Positions 9,738 through 50,039 of a stretch of DNA of 64,000 nucleotides are shown here, piece by piece (the first letter of the stretch is position 1; each line of letters starts with the position of its first letter). The stretch lies in NCBI GenBank assembly GCA_964559755.1, contig CAZLHP010000003.1, positions 10,465 to 74,464 on the forward strand, read 5' to 3'. This DNA is from an uncultured Candidatus Saccharibacteria bacterium (GTDB lineage Bacteria > Patescibacteriota > Minisyncoccia > Phycocordibacterales > UBA6065). The notes under the pieces are model-generated. The model was not told where the DNA came from. It was given only the letters and a program-made list of their open reading frames with translations, and did no database searches. The position numbers were made by a program, and so were the translations under genes.

Positions 9738-9750
9738 AAGGAGGTGTCAG

Positions 9751-9774
9751 CTTTTAGGTGTTAGGTTTTAGAAA
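9751..9774 (+). repeat. Copy 1 of a recurring post-stop-codon motif cttttaggtgttaggttttagaaa
   Basis: Near-identical motif also at 21689-21714 and 22958-22989, each immediately after a stop codon. Confidence 0.5.
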
Positions 9775-9834
9775 ACCAAAAAGTGTTTTAAATTCCTACC
9801 GAAAGCCAACACCTGAAACCTGATAACTGTGTTT

Positions 9835-21092: not shown

Positions 21093-21689
21093 ATGGATAA
21101 AAATATTCAAAAAAAATATGAATCTCTGCCTGACGATGTAAGAAAGGCAATTGACTCGACTGAACTGCCTTTAAAGCTTCAGAAAATTTCTTCTGATCAA
21201 GGTCTTCATGTGGATCAAGCAGGAATTCTTGAGGAAGAAGTTGCTTCTGTCATGCTTGGAATAATCCATCCTGACGAGTTCGTAGATGCAATCGAGGAAA
21301 GGCTTGGCATATCAACGGAAAAAGCGATTGATATCACCACATCTGTCAATATGGAGATTATTATACCGATTCGAGAGTCGCTCATGACTCTTCATGAAAA
21401 AGAAAGCTCTATAGAAACCAGAGCTGAGGAAATCTTACCCTCAAAAGAAGAAGTTCTGCACGAAATTGAAAACCCGACCCAAAACGAAGCGCCTAAGAAA
21501 CCATCTACAGAACTCATGGTGGGCAGGCTCACTGGTATAGTTCAAATTCCTGGAGGGAAGAGCCAAATCCCTGTTAAAAAACCTACTCTACCCGCACAAC
21601 CAATACAGCCAATTCAAAAAACTGTTAGCCAGAGCCCGAATGACCAGAGACCTCGATCATCTGACCCTTATAGAGAACCTGTAAACTAG
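21093..21689 (+). CDS. Acidic hydrophilic hypothetical protein of the T4SS-like cluster
   Basis: ORF, translationally coupled (4 nt gap) to the upstream gene. Confidence 0.4.
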   Translation: MDKNIQKKYESLPDDVRKAIDSTELPLKLQKISSDQGLHVDQAGILEEEVASVMLGIIHPDEFVDAIEERLGISTEKAIDITTSVNMEIIIPIRESLMTLHEKESSIETRAEEILPSKEEVLHEIENPTQNEAPKKPSTELMVGRLTGIVQIPGGKSQIPVKKPTLPAQPIQPIQKTVSQSPNDQRPRSSDPYREPVN

Positions 21690-21714
21690 TTTTTAGGTGT
21701 CAGGTTTTAGAAAG
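21689..21714 (+). repeat. Copy 2 of the post-stop motif gtttttaggtgtcaggttttagaaag
   Basis: See 9751-9774. Confidence 0.5.
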
Positions 21715-21777
21715 AAGGGCTTAATGTTATATTGTATGTACTAAAAGCTAAAAGCTTTAACCTCAAACCTTTTACAT

Positions 21778-22218
21778 ATGCGATTTCAAGTTCCACAATT
21801 CATAGAAGTAGAAGATAAAATATTTGGACCTCTCACCCTTAAACAATTCCTATATCTCGCAGGAAGTGGTGGTTTAGCATTTATAGTCTATAGTTTCATT
21901 GGTAATCTTTTTATAACAGCACTGTTTGTCATTCCTATAGCAAGCACAGGAATTGCTTTAGCCTTCTACAAAGTAAACAACAAACCTTTCATTTTTGTAC
22001 TCGAGGCTGCGATTAAATACTATTTTTCTGAAAAACTCTACATCTGGAGGAAAAAAGAAAGACAAGTAATACAAGCGAGCCAAAAAGAAAACTCTGACGT
22101 ATCAAGTCTCTACATTCCAAAACTATCAGACAGCAAACTAAAAGACCTCACATGGAGTCTCGATATAAAACAAGCACAGAATCCAGCACAGGGGAAAGGA
22201 GGAAAGAATACTTTTTAA
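21778..22218 (+). CDS. PrgI/VirB3-like small membrane protein of Gram-positive-type conjugation systems
   Basis: EDKIFGPLTLKQFLYLAGSGGLAFIVYSF followed by a second TM helix; matches the PrgI-family pattern; located just upstream of VirB4. Confidence 0.5.
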   Translation: MRFQVPQFIEVEDKIFGPLTLKQFLYLAGSGGLAFIVYSFIGNLFITALFVIPIASTGIALAFYKVNNKPFIFVLEAAIKYYFSEKLYIWRKKERQVIQASQKENSDVSSLYIPKLSDSKLKDLTWSLDIKQAQNPAQGKGGKNTF

Positions 22219-22304
22219 TAAAAACCTTGGGTATTATAAACAGATTCAATTATTAAATAGTAAGGTATAATTCTTATTGTCATATACTCTATATTTAAAG
22301 CCTC

Positions 22305-22952
22305 ATGCCTTCTCAAGTAAAATCAAAAACATCCCAGGATTTTGTTCCTATAAAAGAAATCCGCCAGAGTACGGTTGTACTCAAAGATGGATCCTTGCGC
22401 GGTGTTGTTATGGCATCCTCGATAAACTTTGCCCTCAAATCAAACGAGGAACAACAGTCTGTTATGTATCAGTTTCAGAACTTTTTGAATTCACTCGACT
22501 TTTCTGTACAAATTTTTATCCAGTCACGTCGTCTCGATATTAGACCATATATAGCCCTTCTCGAAGGGCGTCTCAAAGAACAAGTAGGGGACTTGCTGAA
22601 AATACAAACGAGAGAGTATATAGAATTCATAAAAAACTTTACTGAGAACTCAAACATAATGACAAAAACCTTCTTTGTTGTTGTTCCATATACACCACCC
22701 GTACTCAATTCAAAAACAGGACCAGGATCATTTCTCAGTAAACAAAAACAATCCTCTGCTTCAAATGCAGAAATGAAGCTCGAGCAGTTCGAAGAACACC
22801 GAAGTCAGCTTGAACAGCGTATCAGCGTTGTAGAACAAGGCCTCGTGCGTTGTGGTATCAGAACAATACAACTCGGAACAGAAGAGGTCGTTGAACTTTT
22901 CTACAAAATATTCAATCCTGGAGATACCGAAAAACCAATACCGTTGGCGTAA
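22305..22952 (+). CDS. VirB4/TraE/Orf16-like ATPase, N-terminal fragment (residues 1 to about 210 of a roughly 815 aa protein)
   Basis: QDFVPIKEIRQSTVVLKDGSLRGVVMASSINFALKSNEEQ...LNSLDFSVQIFIQSRRLD follows the conserved N-terminal domain of Gram-positive VirB4 homologs; ends ...ELFYKIFNPGDTEKPIPLA* just after the homology. Confidence 0.6.
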   Translation: MPSQVKSKTSQDFVPIKEIRQSTVVLKDGSLRGVVMASSINFALKSNEEQQSVMYQFQNFLNSLDFSVQIFIQSRRLDIRPYIALLEGRLKEQVGDLLKIQTREYIEFIKNFTENSNIMTKTFFVVVPYTPPVLNSKTGPGSFLSKQKQSSASNAEMKLEQFEEHRSQLEQRISVVEQGLVRCGIRTIQLGTEEVVELFYKIFNPGDTEKPIPLA

Positions 22953-22957
22953 TTAAG

Positions 22958-22989
22958 CTTTTAGGTAATAGGTTTTAGCTTTTAGAAAA
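22958..22989 (+). repeat. Copy 3 of the post-stop motif cttttaggtaataggttttagcttttagaaaa
   Basis: See 9751-9774; lies between the VirB4 N-fragment stop and the Avd-like gene start. Confidence 0.5.
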
Positions 22990-23352
22990 ATGATTAGTTC
23001 CTACAAAGATTTGGTAGTTTGGCAAAAATCCATAGAGCTAGTTAGTGAGATCTATAAAACGACCCAACTATTTCCAAAAGAAGAGATGTTTAGCTTAACC
23101 TCTCAAATACGTCGAGCCGCTATTTCCATACCATCAAACATCGCGGAAGGGAGAGGGAGAAGCACCAGAAAAGACTTTGTACATTTTCTATACATTGCTA
23201 AAGGGTCGCTTTCTGAACTAGAAACTCAACTATTTATCAGCAAAGACCTGCAACTATTACCAAAAGAAAACTTTGATGTGCTTTATCAAAAAACAAGCGA
23301 GATTGGAAAATTATTACATGGTATTATTAATAAGCTAAAAGCTGAAAACTAA
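22990..23352 (+). CDS. Four-helix-bundle protein of the '23S rRNA intervening-sequence protein' / DGR Avd-like family
   Basis: 120 aa; YKDLVVWQKSIELVSEIYKTTQLFPKEEMFSLTSQIRRAAISIPSNIAEGRGR...GSLSELETQL matches the family consensus closely. Confidence 0.8.
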   Translation: MISSYKDLVVWQKSIELVSEIYKTTQLFPKEEMFSLTSQIRRAAISIPSNIAEGRGRSTRKDFVHFLYIAKGSLSELETQLFISKDLQLLPKENFDVLYQKTSEIGKLLHGIINKLKAEN

Positions 23353-23363
23353 AACCTCTCCCC

Positions 23364-25172
23364 ATGGGACTATTTGATTTTTTAAAACCAAAACGCCAAG
23401 GATCGCTCGTAGCACCAGTACTCCCTCAACAAATCTATGAGGCTGGTATTCTAGAGCTCAAAGACGTTATTGCGCCCTCAGCACTCAAGGTCACACCTCG
23501 CGAACTCAATCTAGGAGACAAAATTTGTCGAAGTTTTTTTGTTATATCATATCCACGCTTTCTCACAGAGAGCTGGTTTGCTCCGATCATTAACTTAGAT
23601 AAGGTTTTTAACATATCGATATTCATTCATCCTGTTGAAACAGCAAAGGTTCTCCGTCAGTTTCAGAAAAAAGTGGCTGAAGTACAGAGCCAGATAAACA
23701 TCAGAGAGCAAAAAGGACTTGTGCGTGACCCTATGCTCGATACTGCATACCAAGACCTCGAATCTCTCCGTGACCAGTTGCAACAAGCCCAAGAAAAACT
23801 TTTTGATGTAGGGCTCTACATCACCATCTACGCAGATACTGAGGCAGATCTCGACAAAACAGAGTCGGAGGTTAAATCAATACTTGAATCAAAGCTTGTC
23901 TATGTAAAACCAGCACTTTTTCAACAAGAGCAAGGTTTCCGCTCAAATATCCCCACCGCATCTGACGAGCTTGTTGTACATTCAAAACTCAACTCATCTC
24001 CACTTTCAAGTCTTTTTCCTTTTATTTCATTCGACCTTACGTCCGACAAGGGTATTCTCTATGGAATCAACAGGCACAACTCTTCACTCGTTCTGTTCGA
24101 CCGATTTTCCCTTGAAAACTACAACTCTATAACATTTGCAAAGTCTGGATCAGGTAAATCATATACAACAAAGCTGGAGATATTGAGAACCCTCATGTTT
24201 GATACAGAAGTCATCGTAATAGACCCTGAAAGGGAGTATGAGTACCTTGCCGAAGCGACAGGAGGAAAGTATTTCAACATTTCTCTCAATTCCGAGCATC
24301 ACATCAATCCATTTGAACTTCCTATCGCGCGTGAAGATGAATCTCCTGCAGACGTTTTGAGGTCAAACATTATCAATCTCGTGGGACTCTTTCGTATTAT
24401 GATGGGAGGACTCTCTCCCGAAGAGGACGCGATCATTGATCGTGCTATCACCGAGACCTACGCACTCAAAGACATCACTCCTGATTCTGATTTTGCAAAC
24501 ATAGAACCACCACTTCTTTCTGATTTTGAACTTGTCCTTGCTGGCATGGAGGGAGGGGAGTCTCTCGTGCAACGGCTCACAAAATACACCAAGGGTACCT
24601 GGTCAGGATTCATCAATCGTCCAACAAACGTAGATATCAGTGCAAAATTCATAGTGTTCTCTCTTCGCGACATGGAAGACGAGTTAAAACCAGTAGCAAT
24701 GTATATCGTGACTCACTATATATGGAATGCTGTTCGCAAAAACCTCAAAAAACGCCTCCTTGTTATCGATGAGGCTTGGTGGATGATGCGTTCTGAGGAT
24801 ACTGCATCATTCCTCCTCGGCATGGCGAAACGTGGACGTAAATACTTCCTAGGTCTTGCAACTATCACACAAGACGTTGATGACTTTATGAAATCACCTT
24901 ATGGATTGCCTATTGTTACCAACTCATCTATTCAGATACTCCTCAAACAGTCTCCTTCATCTATCGACAGGCTTCAGCAAACATTCAACCTCACCGATGA
25001 AGAAAAGTACCTTCTTCTCGAGTCAGATGTTGGTGAGGGTATCTTCTTTGTGGGACTAAAACACGTAGCAATCAAAATAATTGCGTCCTATACAGAAGAC
25101 CAAATCATCACCTCAGACCCCTCTCAGCTTTTGGCAATAAAACAAGCGAGAAAGACGGCCGAAGGACTCTAA
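23364..25172 (+). CDS. VirB4/TraE/Orf16-like ATPase, C-terminal fragment carrying the ATPase domain
   Basis: Resumes the homology where the N-fragment stops (FDFLKPKRQGS...DVIAPSALKVTPRELNLGDKICRSFFVISYP); Walker A FAKSGSGKSYTTK, Walker B LLVIDEAWWMM. Confidence 0.75.
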   Translation: MGLFDFLKPKRQGSLVAPVLPQQIYEAGILELKDVIAPSALKVTPRELNLGDKICRSFFVISYPRFLTESWFAPIINLDKVFNISIFIHPVETAKVLRQFQKKVAEVQSQINIREQKGLVRDPMLDTAYQDLESLRDQLQQAQEKLFDVGLYITIYADTEADLDKTESEVKSILESKLVYVKPALFQQEQGFRSNIPTASDELVVHSKLNSSPLSSLFPFISFDLTSDKGILYGINRHNSSLVLFDRFSLENYNSITFAKSGSGKSYTTKLEILRTLMFDTEVIVIDPEREYEYLAEATGGKYFNISLNSEHHINPFELPIAREDESPADVLRSNIINLVGLFRIMMGGLSPEEDAIIDRAITETYALKDITPDSDFANIEPPLLSDFELVLAGMEGGESLVQRLTKYTKGTWSGFINRPTNVDISAKFIVFSLRDMEDELKPVAMYIVTHYIWNAVRKNLKKRLLVIDEAWWMMRSEDTASFLLGMAKRGRKYFLGLATITQDVDDFMKSPYGLPIVTNSSIQILLKQSPSSIDRLQQTFNLTDEEKYLLLESDVGEGIFFVGLKHVAIKIIASYTEDQIITSDPSQLLAIKQARKTAEGL

Positions 25173-28651: not shown

Positions 28652-29419
28652 TTAGTTAATAGGAGCTAACTTCTCCTGATCTTTTTTAGATAATTCCTTT
28701 CTAACAAAAAGCTCTTGGAAGATGGTAAAGATATTACTTGTCGTCCAGTATATAGCGAGAGCACCGGCTGCGTGGTACGAAACAAAGAAAATAAAAAGAG
28801 GGAGGAAATATTTCATCTGAAGATTCATATTACGCGCCAAATCATCAGAAAAACTTGCCCCTTCTTTACGAGGTTGAGTTTTTGGAGAAGCAAGATATGC
28901 GTATATAAACTGTGTTATGCCGGCACAAAGCGCCAAAACATAACTTTTTTGTGTGACATCAAAGATACCGAGGAATATCTCATTTATAGCGGTAGGAACC
29001 TTAATAAAAGAATAGAGAATCTCTGTATTAAAAACCTCTAAACCATTGGAATAAAAAACTTTGTATAAAGCAAAAAGTATTGGGATCTGAATAAGGAGCA
29101 AGAGAATGCCAGAAAAAGGGTTTATATTCTTTGTTTTATAGTATTCCATCACCTTGAGAGCCTGCTCCTGTTTGTTTGGATATTTTTCTTTTATAGAACG
29201 AATGTCTTTATCAGAAAGCTTCATGATTATCTGAGTTCTCACAGCTTTACGCGTCAAAGGAAACAAAATAACTTTTACAAACAAAGTGAGAATTACCACA
29301 ACAATACCAACATCAGCCCACGGAAGGGCGCCTATGAGAAACACAAAACCATTATAAAGAGGGTCGAAAACAAACGTGTGATATAAATATGAAAACATAG
29401 AGTTAATACTACTGCACAT
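28652..29419 (-). CDS. yidC: Membrane protein insertase YidC/Oxa1 (short form)
   Basis: ILTLFVKVILFPLTRKAVRTQIIMKLSDKDIRSIKEKYPNKQEQALKVMEYYKTKNINPFSGILLLLIQIPILFALY; start set at the ATG at 29419. Confidence 0.8.
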   Translation of the reverse strand: MCSSINSMFSYLYHTFVFDPLYNGFVFLIGALPWADVGIVVVILTLFVKVILFPLTRKAVRTQIIMKLSDKDIRSIKEKYPNKQEQALKVMEYYKTKNINPFSGILLLLIQIPILFALYKVFYSNGLEVFNTEILYSFIKVPTAINEIFLGIFDVTQKSYVLALCAGITQFIYAYLASPKTQPRKEGASFSDDLARNMNLQMKYFLPLFIFFVSYHAAGALAIYWTTSNIFTIFQELFVRKELSKKDQEKLAPIN

Positions 29420-29448
29420 CAAACTATTCCTCAACAAAGAAACGAAAA

Positions 29449-29784
29449 CTAGAGAATTGAACCTTTTTTAAGAAGAGAAAGTAGCGTTTCTCTCATAGTA
29501 AACACGTCGAGATCTAGAGACTTCTTAACAACAAAAACAACGTCAAATGAGGGCTTAACCTCATCAAGAACCGAAAGAAGTACGTTATAACCGGCCCTGC
29601 GTATAGCATTTCTCTTTACAGCGGTCTTCACAGCTTTTGAAGAAACTGAGAAAGCAAAGCGTGTTGGCGCCGTATCTTGCCTTTTTATATACACGAGAGA
29701 AATCTCTTGTCCAAAGACGCTTTTCCCTGACGCAAATACGTTCTTAAGTAGGGAAGTAGTGAGTCTTCTATTTTTTACTAACAT
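29449..29784 (-). CDS. rnpA: Ribonuclease P protein component
   Basis: 111 aa basic protein; RNase P protein pattern; conserved rpmH-rnpA-yidC order. Confidence 0.8.
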   Translation of the reverse strand: MLVKNRRLTTSLLKNVFASGKSVFGQEISLVYIKRQDTAPTRFAFSVSSKAVKTAVKRNAIRRAGYNVLLSVLDEVKPSFDVVFVVKKSLDLDVFTMRETLLSLLKKGSIL

Positions 29785-29793
29785 AGTAGAGAA

Positions 29794-29928
29794 CTATACA
29801 CCGAGCTTCTTTCGGCCTTTGTGCATTCGTCTCTTTATAGTCTTTCGTCCTCCTTTGGTTTTAGTTCGAGAAAGGAAGCCGTGAGCACGAGCATGTTTTC
29901 TATTTTTTGGTTTATATACGATTGCCAT
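29794..29928 (-). CDS. rpmH: 50S ribosomal protein L34 (absent from the ORF track because it is under 60 aa)
   Basis: The reverse complement translates to MAIVYKPKNRKHARAHGFLSRTKTKGGRKTIKRRMHKGRKKLGV*. Confidence 0.85.
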   Translation of the reverse strand: MAIVYKPKNRKHARAHGFLSRTKTKGGRKTIKRRMHKGRKKLGV

Positions 29929-30079
29929 AAATGAATGGTTTATTTTAAAACAAAATCTTTCTGAACAAAAATATTCTTATTAACAGATTGTTCACATATT
30001 ATTAACATATTTACTCATTTTCCACAAGTATTAAAATTCCATTAAGCCTTTATACTTAGTCTCAACCAAACACACAACT

Positions 30080-31426
30080 ATGTCTGAAACAAAAAAAATT
30101 TGGGATGGTGTACTCGGTGAAATAGAACTCCAAGTTTCAAAAGCAAACTTCAACACATGGTTCAGGGATACTTTTATATCAAAAATAGACGATGGCGTGG
30201 TTCACGTTGCAGTGCCAAACGCTTTTGTACGAGACTGGCTCCTCAATAAATATCATAAATGCATCCTCAAGAGCTTGAGAGATAGCGGTAAAGACATCAG
30301 ATCTGTTGAATATAATATTTCTAAGTCGGATAGTAAAAAACAAGAAACCGAAATTATTCGAAAGGTTTCTCCTACAAACGAGCTTCCTCTTCAGGATTTT
30401 TATATAAACAAAGAAGACAATCTCAACCCTCGTTATACCTTTGAATCCTTTATTGTAGGGCCTTTCAACGAACTTGCTCACGCGGCATCACAAGCAGTGC
30501 TTAAAAAACCAGGTATTTCCTACAATCCGCTCTTCATTTATGGCGACACAGGAAGAGGAAAGACTCACCTCATCCAGTCAGTAGGGAACTATCTCAAAAA
30601 TAACGGCTCTAATTCAAAGGTTATTTATGTGACTTCAGAAAAATTTGTTGTTGATTACGTCAACGCTGTTCAAGGTGGAAAAATGAACCTTTTTAAAGAA
30701 AAGTATAGAAAATATGATGTGTTCATCATGGACGATACGCAATTTCTTTCAGGAAAAGAGAAATGCCAGGAAGAACTCTTTCACCTTTTCAATACTTTTT
30801 ACGACAATAATAAACAAATTATCTTTTCCTCTGATAGGCACCCGAACTATATAGATAATCTTGAGGATCGTCTCAAATCTCGTTTTGCTGCGGGTATGAT
30901 TGTTGATATTTCTGCACCAGATCATGAATCTCGTATGGCAATACTCAAAACAAAAGCTAAAGTTAACAATGTTTTTGTTGATGATCAGATTTTAGACTTC
31001 ATTGCTTCAAATATAGAAGGGAATATCCGTGAACTTGAGGGTATTTTCAACTCTATTGTGATGCAAACACAACTAAAACAGAGAACATTGAACCTTATTG
31101 AGGTAAAAAACCTTATAAAAGACTCCTCAAAACCAAAAAAGTCGCTCTCAGTGAAAGAAATAGTCAAAATAGTCTCTGATTATTACAACGTTGAAGAGAA
31201 TTTTATCTATGAAAAGACAAGAAAGAAGGAGATTGTTAAACCTAGGCAGATTATTATGTATCTTTTAAGAGAAGATATGAATATTTCATACCCTTCGATA
31301 GGAGAGAAGCTTGGTGGCAGAGACCACACGACTGTTATACACTCATGTGAGAAGATAAAAGAAGACATAAAGACAAACAACCTTCTTTCTCAGGAGTTAA
31401 GCCATATCCGCTCCCTCATGTTTTAA
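30080..31426 (+). CDS. dnaA: Chromosomal replication initiator DnaA
   Basis: N-terminal domain, AAA+ Walker A GDTGRGKTHL, and the C-terminal DNA-binding signature. Confidence 0.95.
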   Translation: MSETKKIWDGVLGEIELQVSKANFNTWFRDTFISKIDDGVVHVAVPNAFVRDWLLNKYHKCILKSLRDSGKDIRSVEYNISKSDSKKQETEIIRKVSPTNELPLQDFYINKEDNLNPRYTFESFIVGPFNELAHAASQAVLKKPGISYNPLFIYGDTGRGKTHLIQSVGNYLKNNGSNSKVIYVTSEKFVVDYVNAVQGGKMNLFKEKYRKYDVFIMDDTQFLSGKEKCQEELFHLFNTFYDNNKQIIFSSDRHPNYIDNLEDRLKSRFAAGMIVDISAPDHESRMAILKTKAKVNNVFVDDQILDFIASNIEGNIRELEGIFNSIVMQTQLKQRTLNLIEVKNLIKDSSKPKKSLSVKEIVKIVSDYYNVEENFIYEKTRKKEIVKPRQIIMYLLREDMNISYPSIGEKLGGRDHTTVIHSCEKIKEDIKTNNLLSQELSHIRSLMF

Positions 31427-31656
31427 GTGGATAACCTTGGGGATAAGTATGTGGATTGCTGTGAATTAACCTGGGTATGAAATGTTGAGTACTGACCCTT
31501 TATTCACAGAGTAAAAAATCATCCACTTTATCAACGTTTTTTATGCACAGTGAGGTAGGGTATAAAACAATCGAAAAGTGCTTAAAAATAAGGCTTTGAG
31601 AGCTATCCCCACAAGTCACAGGTATTATAATAATAATAGACTTATATAATAAGATT
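31427..31656 (+). promoter_or_regulatory. Putative oriC: DnaA-box cluster plus an AT-rich unwinding element between dnaA and dnaN
   Basis: Boxes agtggataa (revcomp TTATCCACT), ttattcaca, ttatgcaca, tatccccaca, tgtggattg; AT-rich ttataataataatagacttatataataa next to dnaN; a TTTTCCACA box also upstream of dnaA at about 30019. Confidence 0.6.
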
Positions 31657-32757
31657 ATGAAGCTAGACTGTGTAAAAGAAAAAATCACCGAAGGAATCAA
31701 TCGAGTTGAGAAGACTACGGGAAAGAATCTCAATCTTCCTATTCTTTCTTGCGTACTTCTCAAAACTGATAAGAATAATCTTATTATCAGATCAACTAAT
31801 CTTGATATTGGTGTTGAAGTTTCAATACCTGCAAAAGTTCATAGAGAAGGAAGTGTTGCTGTTTCAGGATCAATCCTTGCTTCTTTCTTGGCATGTGTAA
31901 AAAATGAAAAAAACATTACCCTCGAACTTGTTGATGGTAATTTGGTTATAAAAACAAATTCTTTATCAACAACAATAAAAGCTCAATCTTCTGAAGATTT
32001 TCCTACACTACCTCAAGTAGGGAAGGAAAAGACTTTTACAATAAACCCTGCTGTTTTTGTAACAGGATTAAAACATGTTTGGTACGCAGCTTCTCATTCA
32101 ACAGTAAAGCCAGAACTCGCTAGTGTATACGTACACCCGTATGACGACTCTCTTGTTTTTGTTTCAACAGACTCTTTTCGCTTGGCTGAGAAAAAAATGC
32201 GTGCCAAAGACGTAAAAGACTTTACTCCTGTTATTATTCCTTCAAAAAACATAGGCGATATTATACGTATCCTTGAAACCGTTGATGAGGATGTTGAAAT
32301 TTTGTTTGATAAAAATCAAATTGCTTTCGAAGCTTCTGGTTTGTATCTCGTCTCACGAGTTATTGATGGAACATTTCCTGATTATCGACAAATTATTCCT
32401 AAAAATCATTCCACGGAAGTTATTGCGCTCAAAGCTGACGTTGTCGACTCGTTTAAAGGCTCAAATATCTTCTCAGACAAGTTTAATCAGATACACATGA
32501 CAGTTCTACCGCATGACAAGGTTTTTGAGATTAAAACGAACAACAGCGACATTGGAGAGTATGTTCAAAAAGTAGATTCTTCTCTTTCTGGTGAAAATAT
32601 TGAAATGAACTTTAATCACAAATATATTGCAGATTCTTTTCAATCTCTCGATTCAGATAGTATCTCCTTTACTTTTAATGGACAAAATAAGCCTTTGATC
32701 ATTCAGGGAGTATCTGACAAGTCCTTTTTGTACCTTGTAATGCCTATGAATAAATAG
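31657..32757 (+). CDS. dnaN: DNA polymerase III beta sliding clamp
   Basis: 366 aa with the three-domain clamp pattern; conserved dnaA-dnaN synteny. Confidence 0.9.
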   Translation: MKLDCVKEKITEGINRVEKTTGKNLNLPILSCVLLKTDKNNLIIRSTNLDIGVEVSIPAKVHREGSVAVSGSILASFLACVKNEKNITLELVDGNLVIKTNSLSTTIKAQSSEDFPTLPQVGKEKTFTINPAVFVTGLKHVWYAASHSTVKPELASVYVHPYDDSLVFVSTDSFRLAEKKMRAKDVKDFTPVIIPSKNIGDIIRILETVDEDVEILFDKNQIAFEASGLYLVSRVIDGTFPDYRQIIPKNHSTEVIALKADVVDSFKGSNIFSDKFNQIHMTVLPHDKVFEIKTNNSDIGEYVQKVDSSLSGENIEMNFNHKYIADSFQSLDSDSISFTFNGQNKPLIIQGVSDKSFLYLVMPMNK

Positions 32758-37167: not shown

Positions 37168-37392
37168 AAAGCCGGAGCCTGACGAGGCGAGGATGGGTCG
37201 CAGAAATTTTCACCAGAAAATTATCTGTGACAGCGAGTTCGTTAGAACCGCTCACTTGCGAAGCACGTGAGATATGGGGTGGGTCCCATATCGTAAAGCC
37301 GGAGCCTGACGAGGCGAGGATGGGTCGCAGAAATTTTCACCAGAAAATTATCTGTGACAGCGAGTTCGTTAGAACCGCTCACTTGCGAAGCA
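37168..37392. repeat. Perfect 98 nt tandem direct repeat (copies 37168-37265 and 37295-37392, 29 nt spacer); copy 2 contains the last 8 codons of ruvC
   Basis: Both copies read aaagccggagcctgacgaggcgaggatgggtcgcagaaattttcaccagaaaattatctgtgacagcgagttcgttagaaccgctcacttgcgaagca. Confidence 0.7.
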
Positions 37393-37845
37393 AGTGAGCC
37401 CCACCGCAATCGCGTCGTATTCGTCGTCGTATTCTATTTCCTTGGTGATTACTACAAGTTTTGGAATCATAGAGATGATGTGTTCCTTGTCGCTTTTTCC
37501 ATAACCAGTCACTGCAACTTTTATTTGTCCTGGTCCGTATTCAAAAACAGGCAGAGAGTGTGCTGCGGCTTGAAAGAGTATAACGCCTCGCGCTTCCGCT
37601 ACGAGTAACGCGGTTTTTTGGTTTGTGCTAAAAAAGAGAGATTCAATCGCCAGAGCGTCTGGTTTGTGCTCAGCTATTATTTTTTCAATTTCTTTTCCTA
37701 TGAGACAAAGTCTTTCGCCGTGTGAAAGTTTTGTTGAAGTTTTAAAACATTCAGAAAAGAGCACTTTTTCTTTGGTGCTTTTTTGTTTTTCAATAATAGC
37801 GATCCCAAGACGTTCATAACCAGGATCGATTGAGATGAGTTTCAT
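37369..37845 (-). CDS. ruvC: Holliday junction resolvase RuvC
   Basis: MKLISIDPGYERLGIAII... RNase H-fold catalytic pattern. Confidence 0.85.
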   Translation of the reverse strand: MKLISIDPGYERLGIAIIEKQKSTKEKVLFSECFKTSTKLSHGERLCLIGKEIEKIIAEHKPDALAIESLFFSTNQKTALLVAEARGVILFQAAAHSLPVFEYGPGQIKVAVTGYGKSDKEHIISMIPKLVVITKEIEYDDEYDAIAVGLTCFASERF

Positions 37846-45488: not shown

Positions 45489-46202
45489 ATGTTTTATTTT
45501 ATTTACGGAAACAACAAAGAGAAAACAAGGAGCAAGGCTCACGAATTGCTCGATATTATGAAGGGAAAACGCCCACAGTCTGCTTTTGTTCATGTGGACT
45601 CTGATTCGTTTTCTCCTGCGCTTGTTGATGAATTGTCGGGTAGCCAGGGTTTGTTTGATCACAAGAGTATTGTTTTTCTCGATGGTGTGATGGCAGACGC
45701 AGAGAGTAGAGATGTGCTTTTAGGCAAGGTATGTGAACTCAAAGAGTCAGATAATGCTTTTGTACTACTTGAAACGAGTGCGACAAAAGAAGTTTTGAAA
45801 AAAATAGAAAAGGGCGCCGAAAAAGTTTTTGTATTTGAAGATGAGAAAGTAAAAAAAGAAAGTTCGAGTTTGTTTTCGCTTGCAGATGCTTTGGGCAGGA
45901 GAGATAGAAAGGCTCTGTGGATGGGGGTGGTGAGCGCTTTCGAAAATGAAGTTGCTCCCGAAGAGTTGCACGGAATATTGTTTTGGCAGGTAAAAAGTAT
46001 GATTCTCGCGACGCTCACAAAAAAAGCCGAAGAGGCAGGACTCAATCCGTATGTTTTTACAAAGTCTCAGGGTTTTGCACGAAATTTTAAAAATGATGAG
46101 TTGCTTTCTTTGTCCGCAGAGTTGGTAGATATGTACCATGACGCCCATCGGGGAAAGCGTAATTTTAAATTAGCCCTCGAGCAGTTTGCTTTAGGTGTTT
46201 AA
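45489..46202 (+). CDS. holA: DNA polymerase III delta subunit-like (short)
   Basis: 237 aa; holA-like N-terminal pattern; weak call. Confidence 0.45.
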   Translation: MFYFIYGNNKEKTRSKAHELLDIMKGKRPQSAFVHVDSDSFSPALVDELSGSQGLFDHKSIVFLDGVMADAESRDVLLGKVCELKESDNAFVLLETSATKEVLKKIEKGAEKVFVFEDEKVKKESSSLFSLADALGRRDRKALWMGVVSAFENEVAPEELHGILFWQVKSMILATLTKKAEEAGLNPYVFTKSQGFARNFKNDELLSLSAELVDMYHDAHRGKRNFKLALEQFALGV

Positions 46203-46238
46203 AAAACCACGCTACTGGAGCGTGGTTTTCTCTAGCTC
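46182..46238 (+). repeat. Left copy of a perfect 57 bp direct repeat (last 21 nt of holA plus its terminator hairpin); the right copy is at 49470-49526
   Basis: cagtttgctttaggtgtttaaaaaaccacgctactggagcgtggttttctctagctc is identical at both positions. Confidence 0.8.
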
Positions 46239-49456: not shown

Positions 49457-49469
49457 TCTGTTTGCTGGA

Positions 49470-49526
49470 ACAGTTTGCTTTAGGTGTTTAAAAAACCACG
49501 CTACTGGAGCGTGGTTTTCTCTAGCT
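49470..49526 (+). repeat. Right copy of the 57 bp direct repeat (see 46182-46238)
   Basis: Identical 57-mer, immediately after the trmB-like stop. Confidence 0.8.
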
Positions 49527-49939
49527 CCAGCTTGAGAAGGAGTTGGAGTTGTTCGTTTGGTTTTTCTTCGTGCGTGTTGTGGCAATGACAGGTGCATCTC
49601 CAGCCACCGTATACACCCGGGGGAGAACTTTGACCAATTGCGCAGAGCGAGTGGTCACCTTTTTCACATTCAGGAGTGATTCGTAGGAATACCATAGTTA
49701 GGGGAGCATTCTTTCCTAAGGGTACTTGAGGCGGAGAGGAAGTCAACGGAGAGGGAGGGGTAGCTGGATATCGATCGTTACGGGGTCAGAATCAGTGTTG
49801 GAATCTCCCGCGCCTCTCAACTCGCCGTCGCTCGTTTCGGGCTGGGCACCAGCTCGCATGATTTTTTACTAAAAATCATTGGCTCCGCTGTTCGATTCCA
49901 AACGCGAGCAAAATTGTTTGCTCGCTCTAGCCACACAAA

Positions 49940-49966
49940 AACCGCCCGAAGGCGGTTTGTTTTTTG
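49940..49966 (-). terminator. Terminator downstream of the minus-strand tRNA-Lys
   Basis: aaaccgcc-ttcg-ggcggttt followed by a T-run on the minus strand. Confidence 0.6.
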
Positions 49967-50039
49967 TGCGGCTAGTTGGAATCGAACCAACGACCCTCTG
50001 CTTAAAAGGCAGGTGCTCTACCGACTGAGCTATAGCCGC
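49967..50039 (-). tRNA. tRNA-Lys(TTT)
   Basis: Reverse complement GCGGCTATAGCTCAGTCGGTAGAGCACCTGCCTTTTAAGCAGAGGGTCGTTGGTTCGATTCCAACTAGCCGCA; anticodon loop CTTTTAA. Confidence 0.8.

Follow-up and report, generated by a model that had tools for sequence, protein, structure and literature searches.

Intervening sequences (IVSs) of bacterial ribosomal RNA (rRNA) have complementary sequences at their borders, short repeats upstream of an open reading frame (ORF), and, in sense orientation, an ORF of the S23p family (PMC4990558). They lie at fixed sites in helix 9, 25, or 45 of 16S/23S rRNA, where they replace the tetraloop of an existing helix, and they are sporadically distributed among strains and excised by RNase III without ligation (PMC4990558). 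Genes of the same family, termed 23S_rRNA_IVP, have also been reported wedged between genes of cas operons, for example cmr3 and cmr2 (Zhang & Ye, PMC3936711). The element described here lies in an operon for a type IV secretion system (T4SS). TrsD, a remote homologue of the N-terminal portion of VirB4, outnumbers every other T4SS component in Patescibacteria, is usually encoded beside virB4 (adjacent in 1,664 cases), and is essential in Ca. S. epibionticum (PMC12102498). We analyzed a 64,000-nt stretch of DNA (hereafter the window) from an uncultured Candidatus Saccharibacteria bacterium (GenBank assembly GCA_964559755.1, contig CAZLHP010000003.1, positions 10,465 to 74,464), in which 411 nt carrying a gene for an IVS protein (IVP) separate a trsD-type gene from virB4. 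With a probability of roughly 0.85, we read this insert as a selfish, mobile, IVS-like stem-loop cassette that occupies the ancestral gap between trsD and virB4 and has no role in splitting or rejoining VirB4. The features on which this reading turns are as follows.

22305 to 22952, + strand: trsD-type gene (215 aa, protein 22305 to 22949), a host gene outside the cassette, with matches to N-terminal VirB4 profiles
22953 to 23363, + strand: the IVS-like cassette (5′ arm, IVP gene, 3′ arm; 411 nt), filling the whole spacer from the trsD stop to the virB4 start
22956 to 22985, + strand: 5′ arm, built of repeated AGCTTTTAG and TTTTAGG motifs and recovered in inverted repeats I1 to I4, in folds, and in the terminal duplex
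22990 to 23352, + strand: IVP gene, encoding a 120-aa four-helix-bundle protein (PF05635, TIGR02436, NF008911)
23332 to 23357, + strand: 3′ arm (CTAAAAGCTGAAAACTAAAACCT), overlapping the last IVP codons and recovered in inverted repeats, folds, and the duplex
23364 to 25172, + strand: virB4 (602 aa), a host gene for a CD1110/TraC-type conjugation ATPase (NF045971, PF19044, AAA_10)

An earlier, sequence-only reading had placed the three + strand ORFs and the 411-nt interval at these coordinates, and all were found there. The exact trsD-IVP-virB4 arrangement also occurs on eight independent contigs from different samples and is therefore not an assembly artefact.

The trsD and virB4 products jointly span a full VirB4 (215 + 602 aa), as the sequence-only reading had recognized. 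The trsD product matches the N-terminal parts of several profiles (VirB4_plasma 100–233, TIGR00929 4–180, CD1110 2–118), while the virB4 product covers positions 185–733 of the 752-position CD1110-type VirB4 profile (4e-111), exceeds the NF045971 cutoff (4.2e-111, 372.5 bits, cutoff 325), and carries both Walker A (KSGSGKS) and Walker B (LLVIDEAW) motifs. An apparent fusion protein of 797 aa (P0288) confirms the joint coverage: residues 1–210 of the trsD product align to its residues 1–214 (45% identity) and residues 27–594 of the virB4 product to its residues 225–793 (55% identity). These alignments place the break within a short variable linker. Homology resumes after about 26 residues and not, as had been proposed, at the very next one. 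P0288 is a single TrsD-VirB4 protein among distant relatives and may be truly fused or an artefact of sequencing or annotation. The relation of the trsD product to staphylococcal TrsD is remote, its score against the NCBIfam TrsD/TraD model being far below the cutoff (NF041427, 3.3e-8, 33.6 bits, cutoff 200). Identical and near-identical stand-alone proteins (~211 aa) carry the precomputed annotation PF26593 (TraC-like); our Pfam scan of the trsD product returned no family, and PF26593 was apparently missing from the model set or filtered.

The sequence-only reading went further and proposed that the insert had split an intact virB4, as an intervening sequence of a protein gene with or without rejoining at the RNA or protein level. 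The position of the insert exactly between the two halves, their joint coverage of VirB4, and the existence of a fused relative at 45–55% identity are all compatible with that proposal, which we nevertheless consider very improbable given the state of the two genes in relatives. The best 120 homologues of the trsD product (73–100% identity, Paceibacterota/Parcubacteria) are all stand-alone proteins of 209–222 aa, and so are nearly all of the best 150 cluster representatives (50%-identity clusters, with identities as low as 36%), at about 200–260 aa; P0288 is the one fused protein among them. A scan of species-representative genomes with an alignment of the trsD product returned 80 loci, 78 of which have both genes. 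Separate trsD and virB4 ORFs were found in 78/78 and fusions in none, with a median gap of 8.5 nt; in 54/78, L004, L007, and L008 among them (relatives' loci are cited by such handles where they must be told apart), the gap is at most 25 nt and holds no insert. Insert-free junctions of 4, 6, and 19 nt occur in relatives at 76–89% identity. The insert therefore split nothing and occupies a preexisting intergenic gap, and the headline claim of a VirB4 gene split by an insert fails: the relatives show the ancestral two-ORF state without an insert, the very pattern that the sequence-only reading had named as telling against it, and TrsD is published as a separate gene (PMC12102498). Moreover, each half has a stop and a start codon of its own, neither shows an intron or intein signature, and secondary excision to the same stop and start codons throughout is implausible across relatives at 61–98% identity. 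A self-splicing intron or intein was also considered as a candidate in its own right and rejected, since an Rfam scan of the window found tRNAs only (and no rRNA) and the host ORFs, with their own stop and start codons, are separate in all relatives.

The VirB4 “split” is thus the ordinary, already published TrsD + VirB4 arrangement. As in pGO1-type MPF-FATA systems and other Patescibacteria T4SSs, a ~200-aa homologue of the VirB4 N terminus lies directly upstream of virB4, with prgI/VirB3 and a VirB2-like pilin in the same operon and dnaA, dnaN, and ksgA nearby; nothing essential sets the window pair apart. trsD and virB4 are anciently separate neighbors in a chromosomal, origin-proximal Patescibacteria T4SS operon, and their normal gap is 1–25 nt.

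What fills this gap varies between nearly identical strains. Among contigs whose trsD and virB4 are 97.7–100% identical in nucleotides to those of the window, the junction has three different contents. The same cassette, 99–100% identical, is present in L089, L090, and L092; L091 and L097 have an ORF-less miniature of ~94 nt in which both arms and the final ~35 nt of the ORF survive and which forms a hairpin (z = −2.8 and −4.4, respectively); and L098 has an unrelated 124-aa IVP cassette with its own arms. The closest species representative, L009 (88% nucleotide identity in the flanks), contains a deletion remnant of the window cassette, L001 (92% protein identity) a hairpin of another arm type (z = −3.56), and L004 (an 89% relative) an empty 4-nt site. 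Because the miniatures of L091, L097, and L009 keep the last IVP codons, they derive from ORF-bearing cassettes. Single-nucleotide haplotypes of the flanks are shuffled relative to junction content, with no cluster of mismatches beside the junction. Intact cassettes occupy the same junction in five other species, and in about 10 more species the trsD-virB4 spacer exceeds 50 nt and lacks an IVP ORF, most of these spacers being hairpins with repeat-built arms (L049, z = −6.9; L080, z = −6.0; L068, z = −11.4). The cassette is a secondary, dispensable insertion that is gained and lost at the strain level, and most species have an empty site here. When it decays, ORF-less hairpin miniatures result, and unrelated cassettes can take its place.

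Several further observations concern this junction. The contigs of L094, L095, and L096 have an identical trsD and end 1–170 nt past its stop codon, as expected where a strain-variable cassette site breaks the assembly. At L029:4622–5117, a frameshift has turned the IVP gene into a pseudogene, which has repeat arms of its own (TTTCTAAAT... / ...TTAGAAATTAGGA). GC-rich inserts of 213–510 nt without IVP similarity were found at L025:4634–4846, L073:4658–4948, and L074:4637–5146, the last with terminator-like hairpins and a possible 108-aa ORF.

The insert itself has the build of an IVS. Its arms are 26–30 nt long, imperfectly complementary, and built from short repeats; they pair with each other in the minimum free energy as well as the centroid fold, and the terminal flank-to-flank duplex is far more stable than expected (z = −4.45, with 0/60 shuffles as good). 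Spacing is tight: 37 nt precede the IVP start, 11 nt follow the IVP stop, and 6 nt lie between the end of the 3′ arm and the virB4 ATG. We found no target-site duplication at the junctions of the window cassette. Its sole ORF is that of the four-helix-bundle protein, and no transposase-encoding parent was detected.

A terminal stem is common across the IVP family. In the best 80 metagenomic relatives of the window IVP (45–59% identical), the terminal duplex reaches z ≤ −3 in 44/80 genes (55%; median −3.4), compared with 4/158 non-IVP ORFs of 100–160 aa from the same loci (2.5%; median −0.13). Gaps from these 80 IVP genes to their neighbors are about 50 nt, and none of 20 related IVP loci examined contained rRNA (0/20). 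Both neighbors were co-oriented in 34/59 of the metagenome sample, a count that comes from crude ORF calls and that we do not use as evidence. Sister cassettes show where such an element ends. The cassettes of L163 and L167 are 90% identical in nucleotides over their whole 466 nt and have unrelated flanks; with L150, the block of homology again includes the arms and stops sharply just outside them. The stem-flanked cassette is the typical form of the IVP gene family and is mobile, and rRNA is only one of its habitats. These three sister cassettes (L163:1600–2080, L167:545–1030, L150:160–670; 82–90% nucleotide identity including the arms) have as their left end a palindrome, GGATCAnC...GTTGATCC, after which come GGATTC/GGGTCC repeat arms; their right end is ...CTCCCAAnTAA.

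Membership of the 120-aa protein in this family is firm, as the sequence-only reading had held. It scores far above the curated cutoffs of PF05635 (4.4e-43, 146.3 bits, cutoff 33.8, covering profile positions 1–106 of 106) and TIGR02436 (1.1e-41, 141.5 bits, cutoff 24) and is best assigned to NF008911 (161.5 bits, cutoff 137). Matches to the solved structures PDB 2GSC (XCC0516, a pentameric four-helix bundle; 1.4e-23) and 2RLD (4.8e-9) suggest a homopentameric four-helix-bundle fold. The conserved motif of the family is GxxRxxxSxxxNxxE (PMC3936711; Lin et al. on XCC0516). Its RxxxSxxxNxxE core is present in the window protein (RAAISIPSNIAE) as R-AAI-S-IPS-N-IA-E within SQIRRAAISIPSNIAEG, with the leading G off its canonical offset, and the same core is found in the cassette proteins of L004 and L098. 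All four nucleotide differences between the window cassette and that of L090 lie within the ORF and are synonymous (4/4), a weak but consistent sign that the protein is under purifying selection.

Likeness to Avd, the accessory protein of diversity-generating retroelements (DGRs) such as that of Bordetella phage BPP-1 (bAvd), is at the superfamily level. The two groups have the pentameric four-helix-bundle superfamily in common, and similarity is detectable in sequence (Pfam bAvd-like, 42.5 bits, cutoff 40; PHROG 3206 “Avd protein of DGR”, 6e-12; the Avd equivalog NF033474, 3e-10). That the gene is the Avd of a DGR, or a remnant of one, is nonetheless scarcely credible. The NF033474 score of 40.2 bits is under its cutoff of 80, against 141–161 bits for the IVS-protein models. 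Neither the 30 largest remaining ORFs of the window nor the scanned T4SS neighbors include a reverse transcriptase, and the direct repeats of the window include no template/variable repeat pair. The window gene thus differs from Avd genes in having no reverse transcriptase, template/variable repeats, or target gene beside it, and in its genomic context, since its neighbors are T4SS genes in every relative.

The trsD-virB4 junction is one of several sites in use. A profile search of all fetched loci recovered 31 IVP ORFs or fragments, 31/31 of them on the operon strand, and cassettes occupy three spacers: orfB-prgI, prgI-trsD, and trsD-virB4. No IVP ORF was found downstream of virB4 within the flanks covered by the fetched loci. 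Site-specific IVP lineages were considered and rejected, as median IVP identity is the same within spacers (33.9%) and between them (33.7%). For example, the operon copies nearest to the window IVP lie in prgI-trsD (59% identity) and orfB-prgI (51%), and the IVP of L038 (trsD-virB4) is nearest to that of L070 (orfB-prgI; 72%). The arms follow the same relationships: AAGCT-type motifs are common to the window cassette, L085, and L031, CAACAACC/GGTTGTTG motifs to L034 and L077, and the sharing of arm k-mers climbs with IVP protein identity. Because related IVPs at different sites share arms, arms and ORF travel as a unit. Cassettes of several lineages use these three spacers of the operon.

This sharing of arms bears on the possibility that the stem-loops are native host hairpins (terminators, attenuators, or REP-like sequences) into whose loops IVP genes land, as rRNA IVSs do when they take the place of the tetraloop of an existing helix. 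The many ORF-less hairpins at the same junction elsewhere (L049, L080, and L068) would fit such an origin. Most relatives, however, have gaps of 1–25 nt, too small for a hairpin; the arms of different cassettes at one site are wholly different (window, L098, and L001), while related IVPs at different sites have arms in common; the homology of L163, L167, and L150 includes the arms and ceases abruptly beyond them; and the miniatures of L091, L097, and L009 preserve the last IVP codons. We therefore regard native host hairpins as improbable.

Distribution likewise bears on whether the IVP gene is a domesticated accessory or regulator of the T4SS, for example a nucleic-acid-binding partner of TrsD or VirB4. 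Its sense orientation and tight packing, its recurrence in the T4SS operons of several species, the 4/4 synonymous differences indicative of purifying selection, the binding of nucleic acid and polymerase by Avd relatives, and the recurrence of the family in cas operons can all be cited for such a role. Yet about 60/80 species lack the IVP gene, and strains whose flanks are nearly the same may carry it, lack it, or have another cassette instead; copies occupy three operon positions at ~34% median identity, without positional lineages; they decay readily to pseudogenes and miniatures; and most family members lie outside T4SS loci. Because the distribution is so sporadic, positionally variable, and fast-decaying, we consider a domesticated role quite unlikely.

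The sequence-only reading had offered, besides RNA-level processing, a naturally split VirB4 with an adopted accessory gene and a mobile IVS-like element inserting at domain boundaries. The natural split is borne out and the adopted accessory gene is not supported; the mobile IVS-like element is essentially right, save that its sites are intergenic spacers instead of domain boundaries.

The cassette at the trsD-virB4 junction is not the only trace of such elements in the window. The features concerned, with the gene that separates two of them, are:

21690 to 21777, + strand: miniature, without an ORF, of the trsD-virB4 cassette type, lying between orfB and prgI and identified by direct repeat D5, alignment A4, and both arm motifs
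21778 to 22218, + strand: prgI (VirB3-like), in the same T4SS operon (PF12666, 1.7e-11)
22219 to 22304, + strand: remnant (3′ ~75 nt) of an L004-type IVP cassette in the prgI-trsD spacer, identified by alignment A1
9738 to 9834, + strand: third ORF-less arm-pair copy, outside the T4SS operon, with an exact 5′-arm motif at 9752 to 9771 and a hairpin

The 5′-arm motif TTTTAGGTNNNAGGTTTTAG has three matches in the window, against 0.01 expected, and the 3′-arm motif CTAAAAGCTNNAANCTNAAACCT has three matches at two loci (two overlapping ones in 21690–21777 and one at the 3′ arm of the cassette), against 0.00 expected. In the orfB-prgI miniature, the 5′ match is at 21691 and the 3′ matches are at 21741 and 21748. 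This miniature is also present in L089; its fold is not significant (z = −0.2), and its identification thus rests on sequence similarity. In the prgI-trsD remnant, three parts of the L004-type cassette can be recognized: the final codons of its IVP gene (GIINR...), its TAAGGTATAATTCTTA stretch, and its 3′ arm. L004–L006 carry an intact 121-aa cassette at this same site; the fold of the window remnant is not significant either, and similarity alone identifies it. A TAAGGTATAAT within the remnant might serve as the −10 element for trsD; a promoter and terminator scan of 21600–23600 found nothing beyond shuffled expectation. The copy at 9738–9834 forms a long hairpin (z = −2.88) at the convergent junction of a ComM/Mg-chelatase-like gene and an M23/LysM peptidase gene. 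A tblastn search of the window for other IVP copies found none; the further copies are at the level of arms. All three upstream spacers of the window operon therefore contain a cassette or its remains, and prgI is syntenic across all relatives examined.

We propose a mechanism largely by analogy with rRNA IVSs. The cassette would be cotranscribed with the operon, and RNase III would cut its stem as it does in rRNA IVSs (PMC4990558). Such a cut would free the message for the IVP and detach the trsD message from that of virB4 while leaving both coding sequences intact, and the 37-nt and 11-nt gaps would preserve virB4 translation in a tight, coupled operon layout poor in Shine-Dalgarno sequences. 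Processing of the cassette stem at the RNA level, the remaining explanation offered by the sequence-only reading, is plausible, although VirB4 has nothing to rejoin and such processing is not needed to explain it. Spread would probably rely on two routes together: insertion that does not depend on a transposase encoded by the element itself, and homologous recombination across the highly conserved flanks.

Several results weigh against a mobile stem-loop cassette of this kind. The fold of the whole insert is no more stable than that of shuffled sequences (z = −0.44), only the terminal duplex being significant, and about half of the IVP genes, including that of L098, have no significant terminal stem in our fixed-window test. 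Neither a target-site duplication nor a conserved target motif was found for L163, L167, and L150, and no signature of a recombination tract was found in the flanks around the replacement in L098. A protein search, a metagenome scan, and an exact-protein look-up found the exact 120-aa protein at this junction only; the nearest relatives are at most 63% identical, and hence nothing supports recent movement of this full-length copy. Finally, there is no rnc gene within the window, and cotranscription and RNase III cleavage are argued from analogy.

Set beside the 23S rRNA IVSs of Leptospira, Coxiella burnetii, Brucella, and Xanthomonas (PMC4990558), the cassette agrees in protein family, sense orientation, and length (~400–450 nt), in complementary, arm-type borders that form a stem, and in short direct repeats upstream of the ORF. 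It also agrees in its fixed, tolerated sites, strain-level presence and absence, ORF-less versions, and ORF decay, and in having no recognizable mobility enzyme. It differs in lying in an intergenic spacer of a protein operon instead of at the tip of an rRNA helix, so that no host RNA is fragmented into pieces that must hold together. The IVS ORF of Coxiella has been reported as decaying and probably untranslated (PMC4990558), whereas the window protein shows signs of purifying selection. The IVP genes of cas operons offer a second parallel, with a small gene of the same family and the same RxxxSxxxNxxE motif between conserved operon genes; they were interpreted there as possible functional partners of Cas nucleases (PMC3936711). 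This report weakens the earlier claim that the arrangement is undescribed. A search of chiefly open-access literature turned up no account of IVP genes outside rRNA as discrete, mobile stem-loop cassettes that form miniatures and turn over between strains.

The ORF-less derivatives also recall miniature inverted-repeat transposable elements (MITEs) and repetitive extragenic palindromic (REP) elements. As in those, derivatives of ~90–120 nt keep both termini of the full element (L091, L097, and the window copies at 21690–21777 and 9738–9834), form hairpins, lie in intergenic spacers, and are present more than once per genome. They differ in copy number, which is low (three arm pairs in 64 kb), and in having neither a transposase-bearing parent nor a target-site duplication; the parent encodes only the four-helix-bundle protein.

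The remaining features of the window concern its setting. yidC, dnaA, and dnaN lie directly downstream of the T4SS operon (28655–32757), which marks the window as the chromosomal origin region, and a VirB2-like pilin gene and ksgA also lie near the operon. This origin-proximal placement agrees with published Patescibacteria T4SSs (PMC12102498). PADLOC returned no match in the window. Elsewhere, two 63-nt direct repeats (46176–46238 and 49465–49527, 97% identical) that contain a terminator-like hairpin enclose ~3.3 kb with small ORFs and the gene of a TrmB-like regulator, beside tRNA-Lys (49966–50039). With further repeats nearby (46251–46357/47136–47242 and 46838–46888/47547–47597), the 46–50 kb region possibly represents either a duplicated module or an island of small size. 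A near-tandem duplication at 37168–37398 consists of two 104-nt copies that are 99% identical and spaced by 127 nt.

A broader possibility, which we raise tentatively and think rather unlikely as a whole, is that IVP cassettes constitute a widespread, unrecognized class of mobile elements, for which the 23S rRNA IVS is merely the niche first noticed, and that the IVP recognizes its own arms and contributes directly to mobility. On these terms, a self-contained unit of repeat-built stem and pentameric four-helix-bundle protein would colonize tolerated sites in conserved, highly transcribed operons (helices of rRNA and the intergenic spacers of T4SS and cas operons). Homology to Avd raises the idea that movement might proceed through an RNA or single-stranded intermediate with a polymerase supplied in trans.

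The split VirB4 and the presence of IVP genes in cas operons were already known; what is new is an IVS-type element in the spacers of mRNA. The origin and mobility of bacterial IVSs and the function of the S23p/IVP protein have been questions since the early 1990s and have been studied almost only within rRNA, where filled and empty sites are hard to compare. In this operon, filled, empty, miniature, and replaced alleles are found in near-identical strains. Cultivable Bacteroidota also have close members of the family, with relatives at 55–63% identity in Chryseobacterium or Flavobacterium, which makes both mobility and processing by RNase III open to experiment. These results recast IVP genes as the cargo of discrete stem-loop cassettes and advise caution with guilt-by-association readings of IVP genes in cas loci and of “Avd-like” genes near defense genes.

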